47,256 nucleotides of DNA from a virus. Taxonomy: Duplodnaviria > Heunggongvirae > Uroviricota > Caudoviricetes. A program made the translations under genes and the position numbers. Location of the stretch: the IMG/VR virus record IMGVR_UViG_3300042563_001894; one strand, written 5' to 3'. Each line of letters opens with the position of its first letter. The stretch's first letter is position 1. Shown piece after piece: positions 18,765 through 44,109 of this stretch. The notes under the pieces were generated by a model. It ran no database searches and was not told the origin of the DNA. It worked only from the letters and a program-made list of their open reading frames with translations.

Positions 18765-20147
18765 ATGGCGTCAAACAAAAATTTCGAGTATCTAGGTAGC
18801 ACCTTTCAGATACAATTACTAAACCAAATCATTATCGACAAAGACTTTTCACGGTCAATTATAGATGTGATTGAAACAAGTTATTTTGAGAATAAATATT
18901 TCAAATTAATCATCCAAATGATTAAGGAGTATTATACAAAATACGAACACACACCAACCTTTGACACATTAGAACAAATTACAAAATCTGAGATACAACA
19001 ACCTCTAGCAGCAAAAATAATTATTGATACCCTTACAAAAGTTAAGGAGTCTACGCTTGAAGGGGCTGAGTTTGTGCAAGAAAAATCGATGAAGTTCTGT
19101 AAACAACAGGAGTTACAGAAAGTAATGGTTAAAGCTCAAAAAATCATCGACACTGGTGAATTTGAGAGTTACGACACATTAGAAGAGATGGTGAGTAAAG
19201 CTCTTCAGGTTGGGGAACACGATAAGGGAACGGAAAGTGTTTTCAGCAATTTAGATGATGTTCTAAACGAGGATTATCGTCATCCGATACCAATGGGTAT
19301 TCCGGGGATAGATAGACTCTTAAAAGGAGGGTTGGCTAAAGGTGAAATCGGTGTTATTTTAGCACCAACAGGTGTAGGTAAATCTACTTTACTTACAAAA
19401 ATCTCAAATCACGCATTTAATTTGGGATATAATGTGTTACAAATATTCTTTGAGGATAACCCAAAGATTATTCAACGTAAACACATTACATTATGGACAA
19501 AAATCCATCCGGATGAATTGTCTATTAGAAAAGATGAAGTAATAACTAAAGTTCAAGAAATTAAGGAAAAAATGCCTAATGAATTGATACTTAAAAAACT
19601 TCCATCCGATACTGTAACAATGATGCAGATTAAGAATCAAATCAGAAAAATGATTTCAGAAGGAATCAAAATTGATATGGTATTATTGGACTACATTGAC
19701 TGTGTGGTACCGGATAAAAACTTGGGGGATGAATGGAAATCTGAAGGGTCTGTGATGAGAGGTTTTGAATCTATGTGTCACGAACTTGATTTGGTAGGAT
19801 GGACAGCGACTCAGGGTAATAGAAGTTCAATATCGTCTGATGTTGTTACAACCGACCAAATGGGTGGGTCTATTAAAAAAGCACAGGTTGGACACGTAAT
19901 CATTTCCGTGGCTAAATCTTTACAACAAAAAGAAATGAAATTAGCAACAATCGCAATTACTAAATCACGGATTGGTGATGATGGTGTTGTCTTTGAGAAT
20001 TGTAAATTTGACAATGGTATGTTGGAGATTGATACTGAAAGTTCAGTAACATTCTTAGGATTAGAAGAACAAACCGAAGAAAGAAATAGACAAAGAATCA
20101 AAGACTTGTTAGACAAGAGAAAAGAAAAAAACCAACAACAAAATTAA
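18765..20147 (+). CDS. dnaB: DnaB/T4 gp41-like replicative helicase
   Basis: Walker A APTGVGKST, FFED, Walker B LLDYID, WTATQGNR, KSR.G arginine finger. Confidence 0.9.
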   Translation: MASNKNFEYLGSTFQIQLLNQIIIDKDFSRSIIDVIETSYFENKYFKLIIQMIKEYYTKYEHTPTFDTLEQITKSEIQQPLAAKIIIDTLTKVKESTLEGAEFVQEKSMKFCKQQELQKVMVKAQKIIDTGEFESYDTLEEMVSKALQVGEHDKGTESVFSNLDDVLNEDYRHPIPMGIPGIDRLLKGGLAKGEIGVILAPTGVGKSTLLTKISNHAFNLGYNVLQIFFEDNPKIIQRKHITLWTKIHPDELSIRKDEVITKVQEIKEKMPNELILKKLPSDTVTMMQIKNQIRKMISEGIKIDMVLLDYIDCVVPDKNLGDEWKSEGSVMRGFESMCHELDLVGWTATQGNRSSISSDVVTTDQMGGSIKKAQVGHVIISVAKSLQQKEMKLATIAITKSRIGDDGVVFENCKFDNGMLEIDTESSVTFLGLEEQTEERNRQRIKDLLDKRKEKNQQQN

Positions 20148-20153
20148 TTTAAA

Positions 20154-21104
20154 ATGAAAGAAAAAATATTAGAACCGAATAATGACCGATTCGTTATCTT
20201 CCCTATAGAACATAACGATATATGGGAATTTTATAAACAACACCAAGCCGCGTTTTGGACGGCAGAAGAAGTGGATTTATCTAACGATATTAGAGATTGG
20301 GAAAATCTATCTGATAATGAGAGGTTCTTCCTTAAAAATGTATTAGCGTTCTTTGCGGCGTCTGATGGTATTGTTAATGAAAACTTGGCTGAGAATTTCT
20401 TAAAAGAAGTTCAATATGCTGAAGCAAAGTTCTTCTACGGATTCCAAATTATGATGGAGAACATTCACTCATTAATGTATTCATTATTGATTGATACTTA
20501 CGTATCTGACGAGAAAGAAAAGGATGAATGTTTTCACGCAATTGACAGATTACCTGCCGTTCAAAAGAAAGCTAAATGGGCTCTTGATTGGATTGAAAAC
20601 TCTTCATTTCAAGAAAGATTAGTGGCGTTTGCGGCGGTTGAAGGTATATTCTTCTCCGGTTCATTCTGTTCTATCTTTTGGATGAAATCAAGAGGAATTA
20701 TGCAAGGATTGTGTAACGCTAATAGTCTTATTTTTAAAGATGAAAACTTACACTGTGATTTTGCTATCCATTTGATTAACAATCACGTTGAGAACAAACC
20801 AACAGAGAAAAGAATTAAAGAAATTTTATTATCTGCGTTAGAGATTGAAAAAGAGTTTATTACTGAGTCATTACCTGTATCTTTAATAGGTATGAATTCA
20901 AATTTGATGAAACAATATCTTGAATTTGTAACTGACGGACTATTAGTTAAGTTTGGATGTAAGAAACATTTTAATGTGGAACAACCATTCAAATTTATGG
21001 AACAAATAGCTGTCGAGACAAAGGGTAATTTCTTTGAGTCAAGAACTATGGAATACCAAAAGGCGAAATTAGGTGAGTCATTAACATTTACAGAAGATTT
21101 TTAA
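20154..21104 (+). CDS. nrdB: Class Ia ribonucleotide reductase small subunit
   Basis: [53 protein letters not shown] motifs. Confidence 0.97.
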
Positions 21105-21107
21105 AAT

Positions 21108-23522
21108 ATGATGTCATTAAAGATAAAAAAAAGAGGGGGTGACGAGGTGTCGTTTAACCCCCAAAAAATATACAGTCGAGTAAAAAGAGCTGCTAAAGGG
21201 TTAAACGTTAATGCTGATGAGGTATTCATTAAGGTGATTACTTCTGTTCCGACTGAAGGTGTGATTACCACAAAAGAGTTAGATAAATTGGTTTACGAGA
21301 TTGCTGCGGCTTATACCGGTAGTCATCACGATTATTCAAGATTGGCTTCTTCGGTGGCTATTTCTGCGTATCATAAAGAAACTGACGAAAGTTTCTGTAA
21401 TACTATGAAACGTTTACACGAGGATGGAGTTATTAATGACATATTAATTGATACTATTAACGAATATGGTTGGGGGGATATTGATTCTGTAATAAATCAC
21501 GAGAATGATTACAATTTTGATTATTTTGCGTGGAAATCATTACAGGAAATGTATTTGTTGAAGACTCCACAAGGTGTTGTTGTTGAAAGACCGCAACATA
21601 TGTATATGAGAGTTGCTTTATGGGTTACTAAATCATTTGAAGAGGCGGTTGAATACTACAATTCGTTATCAAATCAACTTATCTCTCCGGCAACCCCAAT
21701 TATGATTAATGCGGGAACTAAAACACCTCAATTAGCGTCCTGTGTGTTGAAATACAATAACGGGGATTCAAGACAAGGTTTATTAGACACCTTTAATGAT
21801 ATTTCAACGTATTCATCAGATGCTGCAGGTATTGGATTATGTATGTCTAACATTCGTAGTAAAGAGAGTCGTATTAACTCATCAGGTGGATTTGCCGGTG
21901 GTTTATTGAAATACCTAAAGATTGTTAACGAAGGACTGAGATTCTTTAATCAACAAGGTAGAAGACCGGGTAGCGCCGCCATCTACATAGAACCTTGGCA
22001 TAAAGACATTATGGACTTACTTGAAATCAAAAAGAATACAGGTGCTGAGGAGTTGAGAGCAAAAGATTTGTTTACGTCAATTTGGTTACCGGACAACTTT
22101 ATGAACGCGGTTAAGAACAATGATGATTGGTACTTATTCTGCCCTAACGACATTGTTAAAGCGGGTATTAAACCATTACAAGAGGCTTACGGTGATGAGT
22201 ATGAATCAAACTACAACAAAGCGGTTGAACTTGGTTTAGGTAAGAAAGTGAAAGCTCAGACAATTTGGAATAAAATTATTGAATCTCAGGTTGAAACCGG
22301 AGTTCCTTACTTATGTTCTAAAGATAGTGCAAACAGAAAAACAAACCATCAAAACATTGGGGTGATTAAACAATCTAACCTATGTAATGAGATTTACCAA
22401 TATACTGATGAAAACACCACAGCAATCTGTACATTATCATCTATGGTATTGAAAAACTTTATTATTAAAGGTGAGTTTGATTTCAAGTTACTTTACAGTG
22501 AGGTTAGAAAGGTTGTTAGAGCACTTAACAAAGTTGTTGACATTAATAGTTACTCAACTGAACAAGGTAGAAAAGGTGGTTTAGAACAAAGAGCGATTGC
22601 GATTGGAACTCAAGGTCTTGCTGACGTATTCTTCTTAATGGATTATATCTTCACGACTGAAGAGGCAAAACAATTAAACAAAGAAATTTTTGAAACAATC
22701 TATTTTGCTGCAATCACCGAAAGTATGAACTTATGTAAAACAGGTGAATACAAACCATATAAATTCTTTAAAGGGTCACCAATGTCAAAAGGGATATTTC
22801 AATTTGATATGTGGGGATTAGATTACGAAGGATTAGGTAGAATGTGGGATTGGGACTCACTTAAATTAGAGGTGTCCAACCACGGGGTTTGTAACTCATT
22901 ATTTACGGCTCAGATGCCGGTAGCATCTTCGGCTAAAATCACAGGTTCATTTGAAATGACAGAACCGGCTCACTCGGCATTATTTAATCGTCGTGTGGTT
23001 GGGGGAGAAATTTTAATTGTTAATAAATACTTAATTAACGATTTTGAAAAGTTAGGTGTTTGGTGTGAGGATTTAAAAAATGAAATCATAATGAATGAAG
23101 GTTCTGTTCAAAACATTAACTTTAATCATTATTTGGACACGGAAGATAAGAATTACAATAAAAAGGTAAAAAGAATTGAACATTTAATTCCTAAATATAG
23201 AACAATTTGGGAAATATCTCAAAGAGAACTTATTGATATGGCGGCTGACAGAGCACCATTTATTGACCAATCACAGTCGATGAATATCTATATGTCTGAA
23301 CCAACATTATCAAAGATTTCATCATCTCACTTCCATTCTTGGGGTAAAGGATTAAAAACTCTTTGTTACTATGTTAGAACAAAAGCAATATCAACCGGGG
23401 CAAAACATTTGGCAGTTGATATTACAAAAGTACAACAACCAAAGACTATTGAAAAACCAACGGTAGATTTAACACAAAAACCTACTGACACAGAATTTGA
23501 GTGTTTTGGGTGTGGTTCTTAA
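21108..23522 (+). CDS. nrdA: Class Ia ribonucleotide reductase large subunit with N-terminal ATP cone
   Basis: IKKRGG ATP cone, ATPIMINAGT, QLASC, SNLCNEI active site, KTLCYYVR, C-terminal CFGC redox pair. Confidence 0.97.
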   Translation: MMSLKIKKRGGDEVSFNPQKIYSRVKRAAKGLNVNADEVFIKVITSVPTEGVITTKELDKLVYEIAAAYTGSHHDYSRLASSVAISAYHKETDESFCNTMKRLHEDGVINDILIDTINEYGWGDIDSVINHENDYNFDYFAWKSLQEMYLLKTPQGVVVERPQHMYMRVALWVTKSFEEAVEYYNSLSNQLISPATPIMINAGTKTPQLASCVLKYNNGDSRQGLLDTFNDISTYSSDAAGIGLCMSNIRSKESRINSSGGFAGGLLKYLKIVNEGLRFFNQQGRRPGSAAIYIEPWHKDIMDLLEIKKNTGAEELRAKDLFTSIWLPDNFMNAVKNNDDWYLFCPNDIVKAGIKPLQEAYGDEYESNYNKAVELGLGKKVKAQTIWNKIIESQVETGVPYLCSKDSANRKTNHQNIGVIKQSNLCNEIYQYTDENTTAICTLSSMVLKNFIIKGEFDFKLLYSEVRKVVRALNKVVDINSYSTEQGRKGGLEQRAIAIGTQGLADVFFLMDYIFTTEEAKQLNKEIFETIYFAAITESMNLCKTGEYKPYKFFKGSPMSKGIFQFDMWGLDYEGLGRMWDWDSLKLEVSNHGVCNSLFTAQMPVASSAKITGSFEMTEPAHSALFNRRVVGGEILIVNKYLINDFEKLGVWCEDLKNEIIMNEGSVQNINFNHYLDTEDKNYNKKVKRIEHLIPKYRTIWEISQRELIDMAADRAPFIDQSQSMNIYMSEPTLSKISSSHFHSWGKGLKTLCYYVRTKAISTGAKHLAVDITKVQQPKTIEKPTVDLTQKPTDTEFECFGCGS

Positions 23523-23546: not shown

Positions 23547-23572
23547 AATCACGACTTCGGTCGTGATTTTTT
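23547..23572 (+). terminator. Intrinsic terminator with C(UUCG)G tetraloop
   Basis: AATCACGAC-TTCG-GTCGTGATT perfect 9-bp stem followed by T-rich run, after nrdA. Confidence 0.9.
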
Positions 23573-23581
23573 ATTTTACTC

Positions 23582-23615
23582 TATTTATAAGAAATAATTA
23601 CGACACTATATTTAT
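23582..23615 (+). promoter_or_regulatory. Two TATTTAT motifs (23582-23588, 23609-23615)
   Basis: Between the nrdA terminator and the gp25-like ATG 23620. Confidence 0.5.
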
Positions 23616-23619
23616 AGTT

Positions 23620-24078
23620 ATGGCAGATGGAACAACATATGGTTTAACTTTTCCTTTCAGAGAATCTTTTGATGGGAAATACTTAGATTTATCAGATTAT
23701 AATGACCAAGAGATTAGGTCTAACTTAATACACCTTTTATTAACAAGAAAAGGTAGTAGATATTATTTACCGGATTTTGGGACAAGATTATATGAGTTTA
23801 TTTTTGAACCATTAGATGGTCCAACATTTTCAGAAATAGAATCTGAAATACGAGAATCCGCGGGAAACTATTTACCGGGGATAACAATAACTAACATTAG
23901 TGTCCAAGCCGCCTCAGAGGGTAGTGAAGATAAAGGTAGTTATATAAATGATAACGATGAGAGAATATTTCGGGTACCAAATATGTCGAATAAAGAACAT
24001 ACAGCGAAAGTTAAGATTGATTACACCATCAACAATGATGTGTTTAATAGTAGTGACTTTGTAATTATTAATATATAA
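23620..24078 (+). CDS. Baseplate wedge / sheath initiator, T4 gp25 / P2 gpW-like
   Basis: GLTFPF...IRSNLIHLLLTRKGSRYYLPDFGTRLYEFIFEP. Start moved to ATG 23620 because the 23563 ATG lies inside the terminator. Confidence 0.9.
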   Translation: MADGTTYGLTFPFRESFDGKYLDLSDYNDQEIRSNLIHLLLTRKGSRYYLPDFGTRLYEFIFEPLDGPTFSEIESEIRESAGNYLPGITITNISVQAASEGSEDKGSYINDNDERIFRVPNMSNKEHTAKVKIDYTINNDVFNSSDFVIINI

Positions 24079-24082
24079 AATT

Positions 24083-25921
24083 ATGGCAAACAAGAAAATT
24101 TCCTACACAACAAGGGATTTCCAATCAATCAGAACTGAGTTAATTAACTTCACTAAAACGTATTATCCGGACACGATTCAAAACTTCAATGACGCGTCTG
24201 TTTTTTCTGTATTATTAGATTTGAACGCTGCGGTAACGGATAACTTACAATTTAACATTGATAGAAGTATTCAAGAGACAGTTCTTCAATATGCTCAACA
24301 AAGGTCGTCAGTTTTTAATATAGCAAAAACTTATGGATTAAAAGTTCCGGGTATGAGACCATCGGTTGCTTTAGTTGATTTTTCAATTACAGTTCCTGCT
24401 TTTGGGGATAAAGAAGATTTACGATATTGTGGTATTCTAAGAAGAGGGTCACAAGTTAATGGTGCCGGACAAGTCTTTGAAACTGTATATGATATTGATT
24501 TCTCATCACCTATTAATGGTGAAGGTTTTCCAAATAGACTAAAAATACCTAATTTTGATTCAAATAATAAATTATTAAACTATACAATTACTAAACGAGA
24601 AACTGTTGTTAATGGAACAACAAAAGTGTTTAAAAAAGTAATAACACCTAATGATGTTAGACCTTTTTATGAATTATTTTTACCGGACAAGAATGTATTG
24701 GGTATAACTAGTGTTTTGTTGAAAGATAGTACACAGTATACTAATATACCGTCAGTTCAGGAGTTCTTAGGGTTAGATAATAGATGGTATGAAGTGGATG
24801 CTTTGGCGGAAGATAGAGTATTTGTAGAAGACCCAACAAAAGTATCGGATTCTCCGGGGATTAAAGTGGGGAAATACATTCAAACAAGTACTAAGTTTAT
24901 TAGTGAATTTACACCTGAAGGATTTTTAAAAATTACTTTTGGGGGTGGTTCACAATCTGCGGACGAACAGTTAAGAGAGTTTGCAAGAGATGGTTATCAA
25001 TTAAATCTATATAAGTATTCCAACAACTTAGCGTTAGGTAGTACTTTAAAACCAAATACAACACTATTCATACAATATAGAGTTGGTGGTGGTGTAGGTA
25101 GTAATATTGGTGTAAATTCAATTACTCAAATAGGTACAGTATCATTCTTTGTGAACGGACCATCAGATAGTATTAACACAACTGTAGTAAATTCATTAAG
25201 ATGTACAAACGTAACCGCAGCGATTGGGGGAGCTAATTACCCAACAACTGAAGAAGTTAGAAATTTAGTTTCATATAATTTCTCATCACAAAAAAGAGCG
25301 GTAACCGTAAATGATTACGATTCAATAATCCGAACAATGCCTTCACAATTTGGAGCTCCGGCAAAAGTATCAATAACGGAAAACAATAATAAAATTATTG
25401 TCCAAATGTTGTCGTATGATGAAACAGGTAGACTAACAGAGGTAATTTCAAACACTTTAAAGAATAATGTTGCAAATTATTTATCAAACTATCGTATGAT
25501 AAATGATTATGTGTCAATACAAAGTGCTAACGTTATTGATTTAGGATTTAATATTGATGTTGTTTTAGATAATACACAAAACCAAGGAACAGTTATTTCT
25601 CAAATCATTACGATTGTTTCGGAATATTTTAATCCGGAAAATAGACAAATGGGTGAAAATGTTAATATTTCTGAATTAAGAAGATTAATACAAAGTGAAA
25701 ACGGGGTAATTTCATTATCCGATATTCAAGTCTTTAATAAAGTTGGTGGACAGTATTCATCATCTCAAACATCTCAACGATATATTGACAGTACAACTTA
25801 TCAGATAGGGTTAATTGATGATACAATCTTTGCGGAACCAAACCAAACTTACCAAATAAAATATGCAAACAAAGATATAAACATTAGAGTTAAAAATTTA
25901 AAAACGGTTAATTTCTCTTGA
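24083..25921 (+). CDS. Baseplate wedge protein, T4 gp6 / P2 gpJ-like
   Basis: RDFQSIRTELINF, QYAQQRSSV..IAK..G, FGGG, YRVGGG..SNI, AAIGG...EEVR...QKRAVTVNDY motifs; follows gp25. Confidence 0.9.
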   Translation: MANKKISYTTRDFQSIRTELINFTKTYYPDTIQNFNDASVFSVLLDLNAAVTDNLQFNIDRSIQETVLQYAQQRSSVFNIAKTYGLKVPGMRPSVALVDFSITVPAFGDKEDLRYCGILRRGSQVNGAGQVFETVYDIDFSSPINGEGFPNRLKIPNFDSNNKLLNYTITKRETVVNGTTKVFKKVITPNDVRPFYELFLPDKNVLGITSVLLKDSTQYTNIPSVQEFLGLDNRWYEVDALAEDRVFVEDPTKVSDSPGIKVGKYIQTSTKFISEFTPEGFLKITFGGGSQSADEQLREFARDGYQLNLYKYSNNLALGSTLKPNTTLFIQYRVGGGVGSNIGVNSITQIGTVSFFVNGPSDSINTTVVNSLRCTNVTAAIGGANYPTTEEVRNLVSYNFSSQKRAVTVNDYDSIIRTMPSQFGAPAKVSITENNNKIIVQMLSYDETGRLTEVISNTLKNNVANYLSNYRMINDYVSIQSANVIDLGFNIDVVLDNTQNQGTVISQIITIVSEYFNPENRQMGENVNISELRRLIQSENGVISLSDIQVFNKVGGQYSSSQTSQRYIDSTTYQIGLIDDTIFAEPNQTYQIKYANKDINIRVKNLKTVNFS

Positions 25922-25952: not shown

Positions 25953-26879
25953 ATGGATTATATTACAGATATTTTAACTTTTATTAAAGGGTATAATGGG
26001 ACTTGGTCTCAATGTTTTGTTGCGGGATTATATCTTAACTTCAGATTGATTTGTTCTTTTATTATTTTTTTGATTTTTTTTAATCAAATTAGGGTAACTA
26101 AAAAAGTAACAAAATTTCAAATTTTTTTATTAATAATTGTTAGTTCTTTTATTACTTCAGATATTACCGATTTTAATGAAAGAAGAAAATTAGAAACAAT
26201 CCAACACCCCCAAGATTATTTTAATAAAAATACCAAAAATTTAGTTATAGTTGTTGAAGGTTCGTTAGGACCATTCAAGGATGTGTCAGGGGCTAATGAG
26301 GTTCAAATTGACATTTCTAAGTCGAGGGACTTAGATGGTTTGGGTTTGGTTGAAAGTAAGGTCGAAACTAAAGAGACAAGTGTAATTACATATATTGGAA
26401 CAAACAACTATAATTTAACGTCCGAAGAGGTTTTTAAAACAGTAAAGTATTTTAGGCTATTTAACCCAACAGGTAAGGTTGTTCTTATTGGACATAGTAT
26501 TGGTGGGTATAATGTTGCTCAGGTGTTGGATAATTTAAATAAAGAAAAAATTGGTGTTGATTTAGTTGTTTTCTTAGATAGTGCTAACCAATTGTATAAT
26601 AACTATGATTATCAAATTAAAGATAATGTTGGTTATGTGATAAACTTTATGTCTGTTAAATGGTCGGACAATATGATTTTCTTCACCAATTCAGGGGGAC
26701 GAGTGTCCTTATTTAAGGATAATCGAATAACTAAAGTCCTTAATGTTGATATTCCTAATACAACTCACACATCTATTGATAACACTGTTCACAAATATGT
26801 TATTAGTATTGTTAATAATTTTTTAGAAAAAAAATCAAACCCTATTGATTTTGTTAAACAATATAAGTTTAAACCATAA
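25953..26879 (+). CDS. Membrane-anchored alpha/beta-hydrolase (esterase/lipase-like)
   Basis: Hydrophobic N-terminal segments (LICSFIIFLIFF; FQIFLLIIVSSFI). Nucleophile elbow VVLIGHSIGG, downstream VFLDSA and TTHTSID as candidate acid and His. Confidence 0.7.
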   Translation: MDYITDILTFIKGYNGTWSQCFVAGLYLNFRLICSFIIFLIFFNQIRVTKKVTKFQIFLLIIVSSFITSDITDFNERRKLETIQHPQDYFNKNTKNLVIVVEGSLGPFKDVSGANEVQIDISKSRDLDGLGLVESKVETKETSVITYIGTNNYNLTSEEVFKTVKYFRLFNPTGKVVLIGHSIGGYNVAQVLDNLNKEKIGVDLVVFLDSANQLYNNYDYQIKDNVGYVINFMSVKWSDNMIFFTNSGGRVSLFKDNRITKVLNVDIPNTTHTSIDNTVHKYVISIVNNFLEKKSNPIDFVKQYKFKP

Positions 26880-36521: not shown

Positions 36522-37430
36522 ATGGCTACAGGAACATATGGGACAATAAGACCGGCTGACGTAAGTCCGGAAGATGTTGAGATAATTTTAAATTATACTC
36601 CATCAAGAGATGAAACAGATAATTTTGTTTTAACAAAATTGGATGCGAAGTCTATTTTAAGACCTTATTATAATAATGATACTACAGGTGTGAATAATGG
36701 TATTGAGATATTAGGTGGTTTATATAATTTAAAATTACCTGCTGAACAATTTAATCAAATTGGGATTTATACGATTTTTATTAGACCTGCTCAAATAAGA
36801 ACAACAATATTAGATTGTGGTGTTTTATCGGCACTTCCTAATGTTAAAGGATTAATTTTTGATTTAAATTCTGTTCCATCTACTTATAGAAACAAATTTG
36901 TTAGTCAAGGGTTAGTTGGTTTTAGAATTGAATATCTAAATGCTGATGGGACAAAGATACCTAATTTCTTTAGAATTATTACCTCATCATTCTTTTGTGA
37001 ACCGGTTGTTCAAAACTTAACAAATTCATCTCAAAAGGCTATTAGATATCGATATACAGATAATAACACTAATTTATTGTTTTGTACATTAACACCATCT
37101 TCGGCACCAACAAATAAGCCAAACGCCACACCATATATTGGTCAACCAAATCAAAATGTTATTATAACAAATACTTTCTTTAATCCAATAACTTTGGATA
37201 TTGAAATTGGAGAACACGATTTCTCAACATTGGCTATTGCTTTATATGGTAATCAAACTAAATCTATTGATGATGGTGTGTATACACTATACGATAATGC
37301 TAATAACATATACAAACAATACAACTTATATGAGATTAGAGACCAATTTAACGAGTTATTATATGAAGTTAGACAAGACAGAGGGAATAACATAGATTTT
37401 AGTAAAAACTTTACAAATATAACCCAATAA
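36522..37430 (+). CDS. Putative structural protein (302 aa)
   Basis: Coupled ORF (TAATG overlap with next gene); no family recognised. Confidence 0.7.
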   Translation: MATGTYGTIRPADVSPEDVEIILNYTPSRDETDNFVLTKLDAKSILRPYYNNDTTGVNNGIEILGGLYNLKLPAEQFNQIGIYTIFIRPAQIRTTILDCGVLSALPNVKGLIFDLNSVPSTYRNKFVSQGLVGFRIEYLNADGTKIPNFFRIITSSFFCEPVVQNLTNSSQKAIRYRYTDNNTNLLFCTLTPSSAPTNKPNATPYIGQPNQNVIITNTFFNPITLDIEIGEHDFSTLAIALYGNQTKSIDDGVYTLYDNANNIYKQYNLYEIRDQFNELLYEVRQDRGNNIDFSKNFTNITQ

Positions 37431-40400
37431 TGGCAATAGAAAAATTTACGTGTCCACCACAGACAGCATCCGGTGCAGGTACATTCTCCGATAATTTAGT
37501 TGGATTCCAACTTGTTGCGGGGGGTGGATTGACGCAAGGAAATTTTGAGTTCACTAGAGGAGTTAAGGAAAAATCAAATAGAACTTTTACAACAGGAGCA
37601 TTCTCAAACCCTATTAACTTAGATAGTATGGGGGTTAATAGTGTTGTTCAATCAAAGGTGATATTTGAAAACAATTTTAAAGTTTATCCTAATTTTGATT
37701 TAACTGAAGTAACTAATTTTACATCATACGGTTCAATGGTTAAAAGAATTTCAACATCGGTTGAAATGATTATTAGTAAATTTCCGGCAGCGTTGGAGGT
37801 TACTTTTATGGATGAAAACTATTTAACCGGAGCTACTGCGACAAACATTTCATATAATCCAATAGTTAATGAAACAAGTATTGATTTAGATATTTCAAGA
37901 ATTAGAAACCCTTTTGATATTGATTTTACTGTTAACGCAACTAGAAATTTAGAACTAAGAGAGATTCAAGTTTCTCCTTTAAGAAATATGACAAATCAAT
38001 TTGCCAAATACTCCTTATATTATGGTGGTGTTGGATTTGATGTTACTCATATTGAGCCAACAACGTCATCAACTACAGGAACCCTTAGAATATACCTTAA
38101 AGGTGATGTTTTTCCGGGTCAAACTCAGACACAAGATGATTTAGTTATTAGACCAAATGATTATCAGGTTAATAGAGTTCTTAATGAGGATTTGGATGAA
38201 GTTCAACGATTTTTATTAAATAGAAATGTTGTTCCTATTTATACAGCAACTTTCCAAGTTCCAAATGAAAACGATGATGGAACTTTTTATATTCAAAATA
38301 AGTTAGTGACTTGGCCGTTATATGGTAATTGGAATTTGGATATATTAACCAATTCCTTTACAATATATTTAACAACATTAAATGAGATTAGTTTGTCTTT
38401 TGATGGATATCAAACAAATCTTGTTTCAAGATTTTTAACAACTGATTCACTTAAAGAATTTGACACCTCTGACCAAAAAATTGAAAAAATATTACAAATT
38501 TACGGTAGAAGTTTTGATGAAACTAAGAAATTCATTAATGGTTTAGCTTATATGAATTCGGTGAATTATAACACCGGAAACGATATTCCGTCTCAATTAC
38601 TAAAAAATTTATCACAAACATTAGGTTGGGCGACAAATATGTCCCCAATTACTAACGAGGACTTTTTAGGTTCGGTATTTGGTCAAAAGAATGTTGATAA
38701 ATCCGCTTTTAGTGGTGTAGGACAGTCTCAAACGCCTGACGAGTTAAACTACCAATATTATAAGAATTTAGTTCTTAATTCCGCCTATTTGTTTAAATCA
38801 AAAGGGACTAGAAAATCCATAGAAACTTTAATGAGGTTAATTGGTGCTCCGGACGCTTTAATTGATTTTAATGAGTATGTTTGTTTAGCTGACCAAAGAA
38901 TTAATATGTCAGAGTTCGACTCTCAATATGCTAAAATATCGGGTGGAACATATTCTAAAACATTACCGACATTAGAGAGTGGATATACATTCAATATACA
39001 AGGGGTTCAATATTCTGGTTTTACAACAACATCAGTTCTTCAAGAAGTTGATTTAAGTAAAGGAGATTATCCAATTAGTGATAGTGGATATCCTATGTCA
39101 CCGGGTAATTCTGAAACATATTTTTATCAGATGGGTGCTGGTTGGTTTGAATCAACACCAAAACATAGGTCATTAGAACAACCGGATTTAACTAATAGTG
39201 TGTTCACAGGTTCAAATCCTAATTATCAAACAAAATTAGCTCCATTTACTTATGGGCAAGAATATTTGAATGTATATAAATCATTCCCATTTACTGATTT
39301 AGGTTATAACATAAGAACAGCCGTAGATAACAATAAAACGTGGGTTGATAGTGAAATTGGGGATAGAAATAATTTAGATGGTGGGTATAACGCATTATAT
39401 AATGTTGGGGCAGAAGGTTTAGTTATTAATGTTAAAAATATTGATTTATACTTAAACCCCTCTCAAGGATTATCTTACGATGTTTGGTATATGTCAAGAC
39501 AATACAACTTCCCAATTAATAATCAAGGTTTGGGTTATGTTGCACCAACAAGATGTAACCCTAATCCGGTATCGTCTTATCCACATAACGGTGGTGTTGA
39601 CTCAACCCTTATTAATCCCCAACCAAGGAAAGAAACCTTTTTTGAGTTTGCTCAAACATTTTGGAAAAACACAATTAATGTTAGAAATAGACAATTTGCA
39701 ACAGATGGTGGAACAAGTGGATATCCAACGTTATCATCAATATATTGGAATTATTTACAATCAGAATCTTTAGCTGGAATTCCAAATGATAACTTCACAT
39801 ACAAAACAATGATTGAGTATGTTGAAGGTATGGGTGATTATTGGATTAGATTAGTTGAACAAATGATTCCGGCAACTACAATTTGGAATACGGGTGTTAA
39901 ATTAGAGAATTCTATTTTTCATAGACAAAAATTTGTTTGGAGAAGACAAAGAGGGTGTGCGTTGGTACCAATTATTTGTAAACCTTGTAAATTCACGGGT
40001 AGTGTTTATCAACTTAATTGTGATGTTTGGTATACCTTATGTAATCGATATCCGGAAAATGTAATGGAATTTGATAGTTTTAGTGGTGTTTTTAGTGATG
40101 TTATTAATCAGTGGGAAACCGATAATGGAATAGATGTTGGGTCGTGTTATAGAGACGGAACAATTGTTAGTGAATGGTTTGTTGACATAAGTATAAATGG
40201 AACTAATATTATTCAAGATGTGTTCTTTGATGGGGTAGGATACTCAAACCCGGTTGGTTACCTTTGTAGTGATGCGATGCCTTGTGTATCTGCATGGGAA
40301 ACAGCGTTAAATAATAGTCTTTCTACTTTAATATTAATGGGGTATGATTATCGTTATGAACGTTCAGTTAATGATGAAATAGGTTCACCACCAACAAAAG

Positions 40401-40495
40401 TTAAGATATGGAACATAAATTGTTCTGTTTCTCCACTAAATACAACTATAAGTATAAATGTAGGAATAAACTTTAATATAACTTGTCCACAATAA
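37430..40495 (+). CDS. Baseplate wedge protein, T4 gp7 / P2 gpI-like, with extensions (1021 aa)
   Basis: ILQIYGRSFDE...IPSQLLKNLSQTLGW...LFKSKGTRKSIETLMRLIG matches the gpI/gp7 KGT..(S/A)I..L motif and its context. Confidence 0.65.
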   Translation: MAIEKFTCPPQTASGAGTFSDNLVGFQLVAGGGLTQGNFEFTRGVKEKSNRTFTTGAFSNPINLDSMGVNSVVQSKVIFENNFKVYPNFDLTEVTNFTSYGSMVKRISTSVEMIISKFPAALEVTFMDENYLTGATATNISYNPIVNETSIDLDISRIRNPFDIDFTVNATRNLELREIQVSPLRNMTNQFAKYSLYYGGVGFDVTHIEPTTSSTTGTLRIYLKGDVFPGQTQTQDDLVIRPNDYQVNRVLNEDLDEVQRFLLNRNVVPIYTATFQVPNENDDGTFYIQNKLVTWPLYGNWNLDILTNSFTIYLTTLNEISLSFDGYQTNLVSRFLTTDSLKEFDTSDQKIEKILQIYGRSFDETKKFINGLAYMNSVNYNTGNDIPSQLLKNLSQTLGWATNMSPITNEDFLGSVFGQKNVDKSAFSGVGQSQTPDELNYQYYKNLVLNSAYLFKSKGTRKSIETLMRLIGAPDALIDFNEYVCLADQRINMSEFDSQYAKISGGTYSKTLPTLESGYTFNIQGVQYSGFTTTSVLQEVDLSKGDYPISDSGYPMSPGNSETYFYQMGAGWFESTPKHRSLEQPDLTNSVFTGSNPNYQTKLAPFTYGQEYLNVYKSFPFTDLGYNIRTAVDNNKTWVDSEIGDRNNLDGGYNALYNVGAEGLVINVKNIDLYLNPSQGLSYDVWYMSRQYNFPINNQGLGYVAPTRCNPNPVSSYPHNGGVDSTLINPQPRKETFFEFAQTFWKNTINVRNRQFATDGGTSGYPTLSSIYWNYLQSESLAGIPNDNFTYKTMIEYVEGMGDYWIRLVEQMIPATTIWNTGVKLENSIFHRQKFVWRRQRGCALVPIICKPCKFTGSVYQLNCDVWYTLCNRYPENVMEFDSFSGVFSDVINQWETDNGIDVGSCYRDGTIVSEWFVDISINGTNIIQDVFFDGVGYSNPVGYLCSDAMPCVSAWETALNNSLSTLILMGYDYRYERSVNDEIGSPPTKVKIWNINCSVSPLNTTISINVGINFNITCPQ

Positions 40496-40498
40496 AAA

Positions 40499-43400
40499 AT
40501 GCCTTGTAATTTAACATATAACGCTAGTATAACAGGAGATTGTGCTAATACTAATTCAGGTTCGTTCACCATTGATATTATTGGTGAAGCTCCTGATTAT
40601 ACCATCCAATGGTTATCACCATCGGCAACAACTATTTCATTAGGTCCAAGCGCGACAACATATAACGCAACAAGTTTATCCGCAGGAACGTATTCATTCA
40701 ACATTATTGATAGTTGTGCTCCAACCAATACAATATTACCGGTAAATATTATTATATCTAGTGGAACCTGTGTTACAATAACATCAGCAACCAACACATT
40801 ATGTGGGTTCAATAATGGTTCTCTAATTGCGTCAACAATTAATGCGTATGATATATCAACTTTTAGTTTATATAATAATACAACAGGGTTTGTATCCTCA
40901 GGGGCATCATATTCAAACACATTTGAATTCACAACAATACCTTATGGAACTTATTATGTGATTGCTGATGACGGAGGTGGTTGTACCGGGAAGTCTGAGA
41001 CTTGTATTATTAAAAATTCAACAACAATTGATTATGGTTTCTACATTGTAAACGATGCGGGATGTGCAGTTAATTCCGGAAAAATGTTTATTTCAGGATT
41101 AACAGGTAACCCACCATATACGTATTTATGGTCTGACGGTAGTGTTGGGGATTCTATTTCTAATTTATCGACAGGGACATACTCTGTGACAGTTACAGAT
41201 AATACAGGATGTAGTATAAGTAAAAGTGGGTTTGTTGGTAAAATAGAACCCGTTGGTTTTGGTGTTGCTTATTTAACACAACCGACTTGTTTTAGTAGTG
41301 ATGGTGAAGTTAGTATAACTATAACCGGCGGTACACCACCATTTTATTACTTAGGGTCAAATGGTGTAACAAATATTACTTTTGACAGAACTGTTGTCTT
41401 TAGTGGATTGGGTGCTGGAGGATTTACAATTCAAGTTACTGATGCCGGGTTATGTACGTTTACAGCAACAGTTACTCTACAAGTTCCTATGGGGATATCT
41501 ACAGTTTCTGTTAATACAAGAAACTCAAAGTGTAATGATTCATCAGGAGCAATAGGTCCTATTCAAGTTTTTGGTGGGGTTGCTCCTTATACATTTACTT
41601 TAACAGATTCTGACGGTAATTCAGACAGTCAAACACCATCAGATAGTGGTACTTGGATTTTTGATTTTTTATCGTCAGGAACATATTCATTAACAGTATC
41701 TGATTCAGGTTCTGCTTTATGTGTATTTATGGGGACTTACGTCATTAATAATGATGTTGTGTATGATTTAACAGTTACCACAACCGGAACAACTTGTAAC
41801 GGAAAAGATGGGTCGGTTAAATTGGAAATAACTTCAGGTGGAACTCCACCTTATTTGTATACAATTAATGGTAAATCTATATCAACTTCATTTACGTCAT
41901 ACACTTTTACTAATTTATTTTCAGGTAATTATATTGCAAATGTGACAGACGCATTGTTATGTAATCAATCATCTCCGTTTACCATTGATGGTTCAAATAC
42001 TATTGATTTTCATTTATTAAGTACTGACTCTATTAATAGTAATGGTTCGTTAACATCTTATATAACAAACGGGACACCACCGTTTACATTATATTTTGAT
42101 GGAGATACTGTTGGAACTACTGTTATGGAAATAACTGATTTACCTCCGGGTGATTATGAGGTTAGAATTGTAGATAGTTCAGGGTGTTCAAAAGCGAAAA
42201 GAATGGGTATTAGGGGAGATAAAGTCTACGAAAACCAAGTAGGTTATTCTAATGTTTGTTTAGGTGAATTAAACAAACCTATGAAAATTTACTCAGGTCC
42301 TAGACAATATTTAAATGAGGGATATGCCGAATTAATTATAGGGAATGAAAATTGTCTTTTAACTCAAACAATATTCTCAGCGTCAACAGTCATTGGTGAC
42401 TGTGTTAATTCCGCAACATTCTATACAGGGTCTACATTGCAGGATTACCCTTCAGATAATTTATGGTACTCAACAATCGCATCATTGATTGAATCGTGCC
42501 CTCAAATTGGTCCGGGAAATGTTGATATTAATCCATTAACAAATGAAATAACAATCTCAACAAATTGTGAACCGGAATCGTTACATAATTCTAATGTTTT
42601 AATTAAAATGAGAATTGATTACGATATTGAATGTGAATTTGGTTGTCTTACACCAACACCTACTCCTACAAATACTACGACAGTTACGCCTACCCAAACT
42701 CAAACACCAACTAAAACTCCGACAAATACGCCAACTCAAACACAAACACCAACTCATACTCCAAGTCAAACACCAACAATTGGGTCTATACCTCCAACTC
42801 CAACACCAACACCAACAAATACGGCTACAGTTACGCCTACAAATACTCAAACCCCTACTCAAACTAAAACTCCTACTCAGACTCCAACTAAAACTCCGAC
42901 AAATACTCCAACTCAAACTCAAACCCCAACTCAAACAATGACAATGACTCCAACACCGTCTTCTAAGAAAACGTATTACGCTTATTTAATATGCGGAGAA
43001 AGACCGAATAAAACTACTGTAGTTATTCAACCGGTTCCTGCGGTTCCGGGTAACGTTGTTGGTGGTGTTATTTTGGACTTTACAAATAAACTTTGTTGGG
43101 AATTGAAAGAGATTTCTAGTGATTTAGCTCAATTAGAGAACAATTGGGGTGGAACAACTTATGATTATAATTGGTTTGACGATGTGTCGCCAACAATATA
43201 TACAGGTAGTGATGGGGTTAAACCTTGTGAAGAATGTGTTAAACTGTTAGATACTGTTATTGTTCCTGTTAAATCAAACTGTCCTACTAAATTAAGAAAT
43301 TGGAGTGATTGTGCTAGGTCTAACGCAAGTGGTAATATATATATTAATGATATTTTAATCTATTCATTTGATTCAACCTTTGACGCTAATGTATTTATTA

Positions 43401-44071
43401 GTACTTTAGGTACAAATGAGGGTGACGTTGTAAAAATTGTATTAACACCAAATGTAACTAATAGTGTGGTTACTTTAAATGTTACGTATAATGGAGCATC
43501 AGTATTTTCTCAAACAAGTAGTAATAGTGAAATTGGTTTTGTGTATACGGTTAGGTGTGATAAAAAATCAACCACTCAATACAACATTGATATCTTTTCA
43601 ACTTGTAAAAAGGGAGAACCATCAATAACATTATACAGTAACACATATACTGAAGGAAATGTTATTCCAACAGCGTATTATTCATCGTTTTGTTACCAAT
43701 TTAATGACTCTCCTGAGATGAATTGGATTTTAAATTCGTTCGATGTTTCAAATGTTGTGAGTTATGAAATACTTTGTGAAGATATAGATGCTTCAGGTAG
43801 TAGTCCTGATGGATATTTCATCCATTGGTGGGTGACGGATATTGACCCGACCCAATTAAACATACCTATAAATGGTAATTGGAATAGTGGTAATGTTCAA
43901 CCAACAGATTATGGTTCAGGTGATAATTTTAATGGATGGAATGGACCTTGTCCACCTTCAAATCCGGTTCATAATTATAGAATAAGAATATCGGCAACAT
44001 TATTAAATGGTAATGTTATTGATAGTAACTACTCAACATTTACTGCAGGTTGTATATACCCATTCTGTTAA
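40499..44071 (+). CDS. Putative tail appendage/adhesin: ~7 SprB-like repeats, Cys-module, Pro-Thr linker, C-terminal PEBP (YbhB/YbcL) domain (1190 aa)
   Basis: Repeats of C...DG.I...GG.PPY.Y...F..L..G.Y...VTD..GC. C-terminus has IHWWVTDI...[18 protein letters not shown]-family motifs. Confidence 0.75.
42650..42962 (+). repeat. Pro-Thr/Thr-Gln low-complexity linker with internal duplication
   Basis: ACAGTTACGCCTAC at 42680 and 42827; CCAACTAAAACTCCGACAAATAC at 42707 and 42884. Confidence 0.9.
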
Positions 44072-44073
44072 TA

Positions 44074-44109
44074 AATAAAAAAACCCCCTTAATTGGGGGT
44101 TTTTTTATT
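44074..44109. terminator. Bidirectional intrinsic terminator between convergent operons
   Basis: AATAAAAAAACCCCC-TTAATT-GGGGGTTTTTTTATT perfect inverted repeat, giving U-tracts on both strands. Confidence 0.9.

Follow-up and report, generated by a model that had tools for sequence, protein, structure and literature searches.

Introduction

Tail fibers of the T7 gp17 type follow a simple logic, in which a conserved virion-proximal part carries a swappable, distal C-terminal recognition domain. Receptor-binding tips set phage host range, and the known tip folds are few. Here we describe a gene for a 1190 amino acid (aa) fiber-like adhesin (positions 40499-44071, plus strand) in a 47,256 bp stretch of DNA, hereafter the window, from the IMG/VR virus record IMGVR_UViG_3300042563_001894. 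The protein shares the logic of the T7 fiber but has neither the T7 N-terminal domain nor a coiled-coil shaft, and carries SprB repeats and a Pro/Thr tether instead. Its last ~150 aa form a divergent PEBP domain, which would make it a modular tail-fiber tip on a fold for which no such role had been reported. In T7-type fibers from metagenomes, a tandem PEBP module replaces the gp17 tip.

The closest described relatives of the tip are bacterial PEBPs, namely Escherichia coli YbhB and YbcL (PDB 1fjj and 1fux), CT736 (3n08), and Rv2140c (4beg). These share its fold (VIA-align Z scores of 14.3-15.6, ~23% identity over 128-137 residues), as well as the cavity Asp, two His, and Tyr and the GPCPP loop. 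The bacterial proteins are free-standing and 150-185 aa long, they carry the motifs DPDAP and H-R/H-Y, and their HxY is followed by 40-53 residues, whereas the tip is fused to a 1040-aa adhesin, reads DIDAS and HNY, and belongs to a group with 24-30 residues after HxY. The family has been defined by five residues: D71, H87, and H118 (FT numbering) at the cavity rim, and a D73-R119 salt-bridge "shoulder" (Tsoy and Mushegian, PMC8793217). The biochemical role and cavity ligand of prokaryotic PEBPs are still unsettled (PMC8793217), and since the ligand of a virion-displayed PEBP would necessarily lie on the cell surface, such a protein would offer a tractable route to it.

Three other systems share parts of this arrangement. 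The ybcL moron (phrog_5139), found in lambdoid phages and in the DLP12 prophage, is also a phage-borne PEBP, but it is a separate nin-region gene for a secreted protein of ~180 aa, flanked by ybcK and ybcM and close to rusA (as seen in phage PhiR34_1), while the tip is part of a structural gene. In actinobacterial proteins with C-terminal YbhB fusions, a PEBP likewise closes an extracellular chain of several domains, its partners being carbohydrate-binding modules and FN3; unlike the phage tip, these are cellular proteins linked to glucose/sorbosone dehydrogenase (PMC8793217). The SprB gliding-motility adhesin and type IX secretion system (T9SS) surface proteins of Bacteroidota have the same repeat type (PF13573), and the window protein differs from them in having no T9SS sorting domain, in lying in a phage baseplate block, and in its PEBP end. 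Phage goes unmentioned (0 occurrences) in a broad review of the contexts of prokaryotic PEBPs, which calls fusions infrequent (PMC8793217), and our literature search retrieved no paper linking PEBP to tail fibers or phage receptor-binding proteins.

Identification of the PEBP domain

The last ~150 aa of the 1190-aa protein are a true PEBP (YbhB/YbcL-type) domain. When aa 1030-1190 were searched alone against Pfam, PF01161 was matched with an E-value of 5e-12 (46.8 bits, against a curated cut-off of 24), and a six-frame scan of the whole virus record yielded a single PF01161 site at 46.4 bits. The match is visible only in these two ways: it was not listed by Pfam when the full-length protein was scanned, and the precomputed annotation of an identical database entry gives SprB without PF01161. 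The automatic IMG label of several orthologs reads "PEBP family uncharacterized protein." A phmmer search of PDB sequences retrieved E. coli YbcL (1fux) at an E-value of 2e-7, in an alignment that pairs D-I-D-A-S with D-P-D-A-P, I-H-W with W-H-W, GPCPP with GACPP, and H-N-Y with H-H-Y. The profile phrog_5139, built on lambdoid ybcL, matches the domain at 5e-10. Based on homology boundaries the module starts at aa 1041 (position 43619), so that it spans aa 1041-1190 (43619-44068, plus strand).

An AlphaFold2 model of aa 826-1190, generated from an alignment of 38 relatives, has a mean predicted local distance difference test score (pLDDT) of 83.8. The eleven top Foldseek matches of this model in the PDB are all PEBPs with a probability of 1.0, among them CT736, YbhB, YbcL, Rv2140c, and HP0218. 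VIA-align gave Z scores of 15.6 for CT736, 14.8 for YbcL, and 14.6 for YbhB over 128-135 residues, with a root-mean-square deviation (rmsd) of 2.5-2.9 and ~23% identity; the next, unrelated rows reach only Z 8-9, far under the PEBP scores. These results bear out a first-pass annotation of the window made by reading the DNA alone, which had placed a YbhB/YbcL domain at 43615-44071 (codons ~1040-1190 plus the stop) and had proposed the PF01161 and AlphaFold searches as checks. Every motif that it quoted is present, including VHNYRI.

Exchange of the tip between syntenic relatives

A search with aa 830-1190 against 5.8 billion proteins yielded 44 matches. About 25 of these have the same architecture of SprB repeats, linker, stalk, and PEBP domain, at 51-83% identity. 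Six have the stalk in common but end in a different tip, and 12 have only the PEBP domain in common, on different bodies of ~880, 1874, or 2051 aa. The junction at which the exchange takes place can be read from BLAST alignments: stalk homology ends at aa 1038 (relative P0033), and PEBP-only homology begins at aa 1041 (P0034 and P0043), with both boundaries falling directly after a conserved ...IDIFSTC motif. Beyond this junction, P0028, P0031, P0032, and P0033 carry unrelated C-termini. Swapping of the C-terminal domain among homologs, for which the first-pass annotation had suggested a survey, was thus seen after the aa ~1038-1041 junction.

Full synteny with the window was seen in two metagenomic contigs, one with the PEBP tip (L008) and one with another tip (L006), and both have the fiber gene in the same position. 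In a six-frame comparison (tblastx), the upstream genes for 302-aa and 1021-aa proteins are 84-95% identical in these contigs (84-85% in relatives for the 1021-aa open reading frame (ORF) itself), and the downstream 199-aa gene is ~90% identical. The fiber gene reaches only ~62-64% identity in its SprB part and ~50% in the stalk, and is the most diverged gene of an otherwise 84-95% identical neighborhood. In L006, similarity vanishes over 43438-44078 and returns right after the stop codon, and the protein alignment ends at aa 1038. Judging from these alignments, the C-terminal end of the fiber is a replaceable cassette that is exchanged between orthologs. A divergence hotspot combined with a replaceable end is the usual signature of a host-range determinant.

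PEBP modules on other phage scaffolds

We searched the PEBP domain alone against 1.84 billion representative proteins with exhaustive phmmer, which gave 426 matches at an E-value of 1e-3 or better. For classification, the best 150 of these 426 were pooled with the domain-bearing matches from the aa 830-1190 search, for a set of 184 proteins. Of the 184, 80 are larger proteins that end in the PEBP domain at the C-terminus, 22 are larger proteins with it at the N-terminal end, and 12 have it internally; the remaining 70 are short proteins, some of which are fragments.

Four genomic contexts were sampled, and all four are phage. In P0049-51, a Phage_T7_tail domain at the N-terminus is combined with a fibritin-like coil and a tandem pair of PEBP domains on Gly-rich linkers, and the P0049 gene comes after three core-protein-sized genes, like T7 gene 17. 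The P0039 gene (895 aa) is the last of a run of large genes on a phage contig with gp13, sheath, and PolB genes. In a crAss-like phage, the gene for P0053 (874 aa, with an N-terminal PEBP domain) is flanked by capsid and ring/muzzle genes. P0053 also belongs to a Cys-rich class of 870-960 aa proteins with the PEBP domain at the N-terminus, together with P0056, P0057, and ~20 more; P0053 is the member whose context was sampled. The coiled-coil-rich P0043 (1874 aa) ends in the same PEBP domain, and the ~100 residues preceding it are common to P0034-P0045 (~880 aa). This shared segment suggests, at the sequence level, that the module travels together with a short adaptor.

Among the 63 fused PEBP proteins outside the lineage of the window protein, T7 tail-fiber N-termini were found in seven; this feature belongs to the relatives and not to the window protein. 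Several more of the 63 match tail fiber, collar, or minor-tail PHROGs. Their other Pfam partners are extracellular (SprB, Calx-beta, fn3, PKD, Big_9, dockerin, and cohesin), apart from two subtilases (Peptidase_S8, 2 of 63), which deserve mention given that serine-protease inhibition is known for some PEBPs. A maximum-likelihood tree of 188 domains has the window lineage as one clade with an SH-aLRT support of 99, and the 40 nearest domains are almost all parts of large proteins.

A peptide-pattern scan retrieved 24 IMG/VR contigs versus one distant match, in a Chloroflexia metagenome-assembled genome, among bacterial and archaeal species-representative genomes; as a single narrow pattern was used, this result is indicative only and does not establish absence from bacteria. 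For cultured phages, tblastn was used against 50,697 GenBank phage records. The PEBP domain alone had no match even at an E-value of 1, and a T7-type relative used as the query matched only free-standing ybcL genes and T7-type N-termini. The sole phage PEBP found in these records is the free-standing ybcL moron of the lambdoid nin region; the first-pass annotation had correctly mentioned a free-standing ybcL, in the DLP12 prophage. With the whole window protein as the query, the sole match was the SprB-repeat stretch of a 642-kb uncultured megaphage (LR756502.1, 516595-518271), which is 26.5% identical to the fiber.

In metagenomes, the PEBP tip turns up on at least four phage scaffolds that are unrelated to one another, yet cultured-phage records lack it. 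Since the tail fibers of several unrelated groups of phages carry it as an exchangeable end, it probably represents a type of host-recognition tip that has not been described. The module could also be a marker for annotating the tail fibers of uncultured phages and a probe with which to fish out their hosts.

Cavity and subfamily features

The cavity residues of the window domain are D1095 (43781-43783), H1109 (43823-43825), H1158 (43970-43972), Y1160 (43976-43978), and G1149-P1150-C1151 within GPCPP. D1095, H1109, H1158, Y1160, and G1149-P1150 align to the corresponding YbcL residues, so the cavity triad, the Tyr of HxY, and the Gly-Pro pair are all in place. Together with W1110, these residues are kept at 85% or more in domains of the same lineage, in other fused domains, and in free-standing domains alike, and the His pair of the cavity is present in 166 of the 188 domains.

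Two classical PEBP features are missing. The Asp73-Arg119 shoulder pair is incomplete, as D1097 is present but the Arg position is occupied by N1159, and DPDxP has lost both prolines to become D-I-D-A-S. Neither change is specific to this protein. The full set of five family-defining residues was found in 10 of 121 fused domains versus 28 of 67 free-standing ones, with another 15 free-standing domains having a His at the Arg position. The second Asp is retained in 61 of the 64 sequences with Arg or His at the shoulder and in 70 of the 124 others. Fused domains read D-[ILVT]-[DNS]-A-x, with I, L, V, or T at position 2 of DPDxP, where 62% of free-standing domains have Pro and DPDAP is typical. 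The fused subfamily also has extra loops at 1099-1102 and 1140-1143 that are absent from the free-standing relatives. It is 15-20 aa shorter after HxY (24-30 residues versus 40-53). We considered a plain C-terminal truncation for this difference, but since VIA-align spans YbcL and YbhB to their last residues despite the shortfall in the sequence alignment, the modeled structure indicates that the missing 15-20 residues may be an internal deletion rather than a truncation.

DIDAS and HNY are the signature of a whole, mostly fused subfamily and not a peculiarity of the window gene. The first-pass annotation had noted the changes from DPDAP to DIDAS and from HRY to HNY and had taken them to indicate an altered pocket. 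The sequence changes are correct, but they affect the prolines and the shoulder Arg while the cavity residues are conserved; a cavity that is kept, with a shoulder and rim that are remodeled across the subfamily, is the better description.

We would also like to note two Cys residues, C1065 (43691-43693), which precedes an N-x-S-P motif, and C1151 (43949-43951), which lies in GPCPP. They co-occur in 156 of the 188 domains and are lost jointly in nine, including P0026 and P0027, a pattern which suggests a conserved disulfide or a paired contact near the cavity. The P0026/P0027 lineage (18 contigs) keeps the PEBP tip with displaced His residues (VLWH and VNHY) and with GPSV in place of GPCPP. 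PF01161 is not detected in it by Pfam, and the precomputed annotation reports a PF18962 T9SS sorting match for P0026 only.

Proposed role and alternative explanations

The context of the gene gives good support to a role as a receptor-binding tip. We consider it fairly likely that the PEBP domain is an exchangeable, virion-distal host-recognition module on a tethered adhesin fiber, and that its cavity holds a small polar group. The module would be exposed at the far end of the fiber and would contact the host envelope. There, the Asp/His/His/Tyr cavity would hold a small polar group of a surface polymer or a lipid head-group, most plausibly a phosphorylated or sugar-phosphate moiety; for the cavity, the argument comes from residue conservation. 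The remodeled rim loops (1099-1102, 1140-1143, and 1154-1157) would tune specificity, and the flexible tether, along with the tandem copies in the T7-type relatives, would provide reach and avidity for a first, reversible attachment. That the recognized group is phosphoethanolamine-modified lipopolysaccharide (LPS) or a lipid is pure conjecture.

Several observations weigh against this proposal. The case for the presence of the fiber in the virion and for its binding to a host is built from genes and models. No N-terminal virion-attachment domain was recognized, as a Pfam scan of the full protein gave only SprB and weak Ig-type matches, and the SprB repeats begin at residue ~15 without a separate N-terminal domain. 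Ig repeats arranged like beads on a string, followed by a Pro/Thr tether, differ from classical trimeric fibers. The domain is strongly acidic, with a net charge of -12 (lineage mean -9.8), which disfavors direct or simple binding to anionic membranes, LPS, or phospholipid. P0026/P0027, a sister lineage that shares the architecture, has lost both cavity His and both paired Cys, and the second cavity His is absent from many N-terminal crAss-type copies, so there are cases in which the cavity is not needed. Mapping the labels fused and free-standing onto the tree takes ~20 changes (a count in which fragments inflate the free-standing class), which does not fit one clean fusion event or clade. 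Lastly, the literature itself doubts that PEBP cavities bind phosphate or lipids (PMC8793217).

A broader version of the proposal is more tentative. Short PEBP domains may be a widespread, unrecognized receptor-binding class traded among jumbo myophages, other myophages, T7-type podophages, and crAss-like phages, with a cavity that docks onto, or chemically acts on, a phospho or sugar-phosphate group of the host envelope. If true, this would be the first clear physiological ligand context for the enigmatic prokaryotic PEBP family.

The strongest alternative, although we regard it as rather unlikely, is that the PEBP fold is only a scaffold whose variable loops recognize a protein or glycan receptor, an anionic or phospho ligand having no part in it. 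Variation and indels in the lineage cluster in the loops 1054-1068, 1123-1135, 1139-1144, and 1154-1157, as such a scaffold would have it, and the acidity of the domain, the dismantled D73-R119 shoulder (the full quintet surviving in 10 of 121 fused domains), and the retention of the domain in P0026/P0027 without both His and both Cys point the same way. What a pure scaffold would not lead one to expect is the conservation, at 85% or more, of D1095, H1109, H1158, Y1160, and the Gly-Pro motif in fused domains of unrelated phages.

We find it improbable that the protein is an accessory tentacle by which the virion clings to polysaccharide, mucus, or particles, much as with Hoc-type Ig decorations, or that it is no virion component at all. 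The missing anchor, the Ig-like repeats, and the Pro/Thr tether would suit such a role, and the partners of related domains include dockerin, cohesin, Calx-beta, PKD, and fn3, all common in scaffolds of the cell surface. Against it, the gene is always the last of the baseplate block in syntenic relatives, it is a divergence hotspot with swapped tips, and the same domain terminates T7-type tail fibers.

An enzymatic tip, in which the Asp/His/His center modifies or cleaves a sugar or phosphate component of the receptor as tailspike esterases do, appears very improbable. Tsoy and Mushegian have argued that the conserved charged set of PEBP/YbhB resembles an active center more than a binding site, and they connect bacterial PEBPs with sugars and nucleosides as substrates and with C-terminal fusions that involve carbohydrate modules (PMC8793217). 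In the window domain, too, the triad of the cavity is conserved. However, no PEBP is known to have catalytic activity (PMC8793217), and two of the five proposed center residues are relaxed in the subfamily, the Arg being lost and the second Asp variable. A serine-protease inhibitor or protease-binding module, which would protect the fiber or use a host surface protease as its receptor, is the least credible reading: it draws on the inhibition of serine proteases or carboxypeptidase Y by eukaryotic and archaeal PEBPs (Tfs1 is cited in PMC8793217) and on the two subtilase fusions, but those are only 2 of 63, the phage contexts give no pointer to proteases, and the inhibitory surfaces of other PEBPs are not conserved family features.

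Protein architecture and genomic context

The fiber gene is one open frame, whose coding part (40499-44068) translates to the single 1190-aa product. It begins with about seven SprB-type repeats (aa 1-570; 40499-42208), which match PF13573 at 70.4 bits against a cut-off of 28 and start at aa ~15, 102, 189, 264, 345, 433, and 510. These are followed by a Cys-rich globular region (aa 571-716; 42209-42646) with no Pfam or PHROG match, which is conserved in all SprB-type orthologs and can be aligned with them to aa ~712. The next ~106 aa (aa 717-822; 42647-42964) form a flexible Pro/Thr tether that is 67% Thr plus Pro and contains zero acidic residues. Two overlapping small ORFs, 42599-42934 (minus strand) and 42615-42941 (plus strand), are artifacts of this low-complexity Pro/Thr-coding DNA. 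That the PEBP domain terminates a protein with SprB repeats, behind a flexible linker and within a phage baseplate block, agrees with what the DNA had first been read to encode.

Between the tether and the tip lies a stalk (aa 823-1040; 42965-43618) that was modeled with a pLDDT of 84.8 and ends at the swap junction ...IDIFSTCKK. Its first part (aa 823-924) is a small alpha/beta subdomain, and its second (aa 925-1040) is an Ig beta-sandwich resembling pilins. The stalk model had no Foldseek match at an E-value of 1e-3 or better, and its beta-sandwich gave middling VIA-align Z scores of 8.2-8.8 with the Gram-positive pilins PitB and Spy0128 over model residues 100-217. A lambda J C-terminal domain was considered for aa 830-1040 but was below the Pfam cut-off (E-value 0.026), the folded domain being instead the pilin-like beta-sandwich (Z 8-9). 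A BFVD fold search produced multi-domain matches with an rmsd above 15 that could not be interpreted. An intramolecular-chaperone or autocleaving C-terminal domain was rejected because the fold is that of a PEBP rather than peptidase S74-like. The T9SS C-terminal sorting domain PF18962 had no match in the 1190-aa protein at an E-value of 1 or better.

The window covers bases 98399-145654 of a 272,437-bp virus record with a CheckV completeness of 91%, and its source is a 272-kb jumbo myophage. The only hint of a host is the combination of SprB, Fib_succ_major, and T9SS-type domains with 32% GC, which suggests Bacteroidota. Upstream on the same strand are SSB-like, UvsX-like, and DnaB-like genes, an exonuclease gene, and genes for both ribonucleotide reductase subunits, followed by gp25-like and gp6/Baseplate_J-like genes (23563-25921, plus strand; PF04965 at 38.8 bits, PF04865 at 31.9 bits, and phrog_219 at an E-value of 8e-24). 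The gp25-like and gp6/J-like genes identify the block as a contractile-tail baseplate module. After them come seven ORFs of 308-1884 aa, six without a family match and one with sub-threshold alpha/beta-hydrolase matches.

One of the ORFs in this block, possibly for a baseplate wedge-like protein, is the 1021-aa ORF directly upstream of the fiber gene (37430-40495, plus strand). A gp7-like wedge had been proposed upstream of the fiber in the first-pass annotation, but no gp7 similarity was found for this ORF in Pfam, PHROGs, or PDB phmmer searches, and what remains is an Atlas language-model lead to PF23786 (Baseplate_wedge) at 0.88, below the threshold of 0.9. The 1884-aa ORF had no PDB sequence match. 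The 308-aa ORF (25953-26879), which lies between baseplate genes, gave matches to LIDHydrolase, DUF1749, DUF900, and PGAP1 at E-values of ~1e-3, all below curated cut-offs.

The fiber gene is the final gene of this rightward baseplate/tail run, a position that is conserved in synteny. It is followed by a terminator-like hairpin (CCCCC-loop-GGGGG with A and T runs on its flanks; 44085-44109) between the fiber gene and the convergent 199-aa gene on the minus strand. In L006, the 400-aa and 302-aa genes are separated by an additional gene of 215 aa. In L008, the downstream convergent block encodes more SprB and Fib_succ_major proteins (20101-23495, minus strand), which may be further fiber or adhesin genes; the window stops before the equivalent region.

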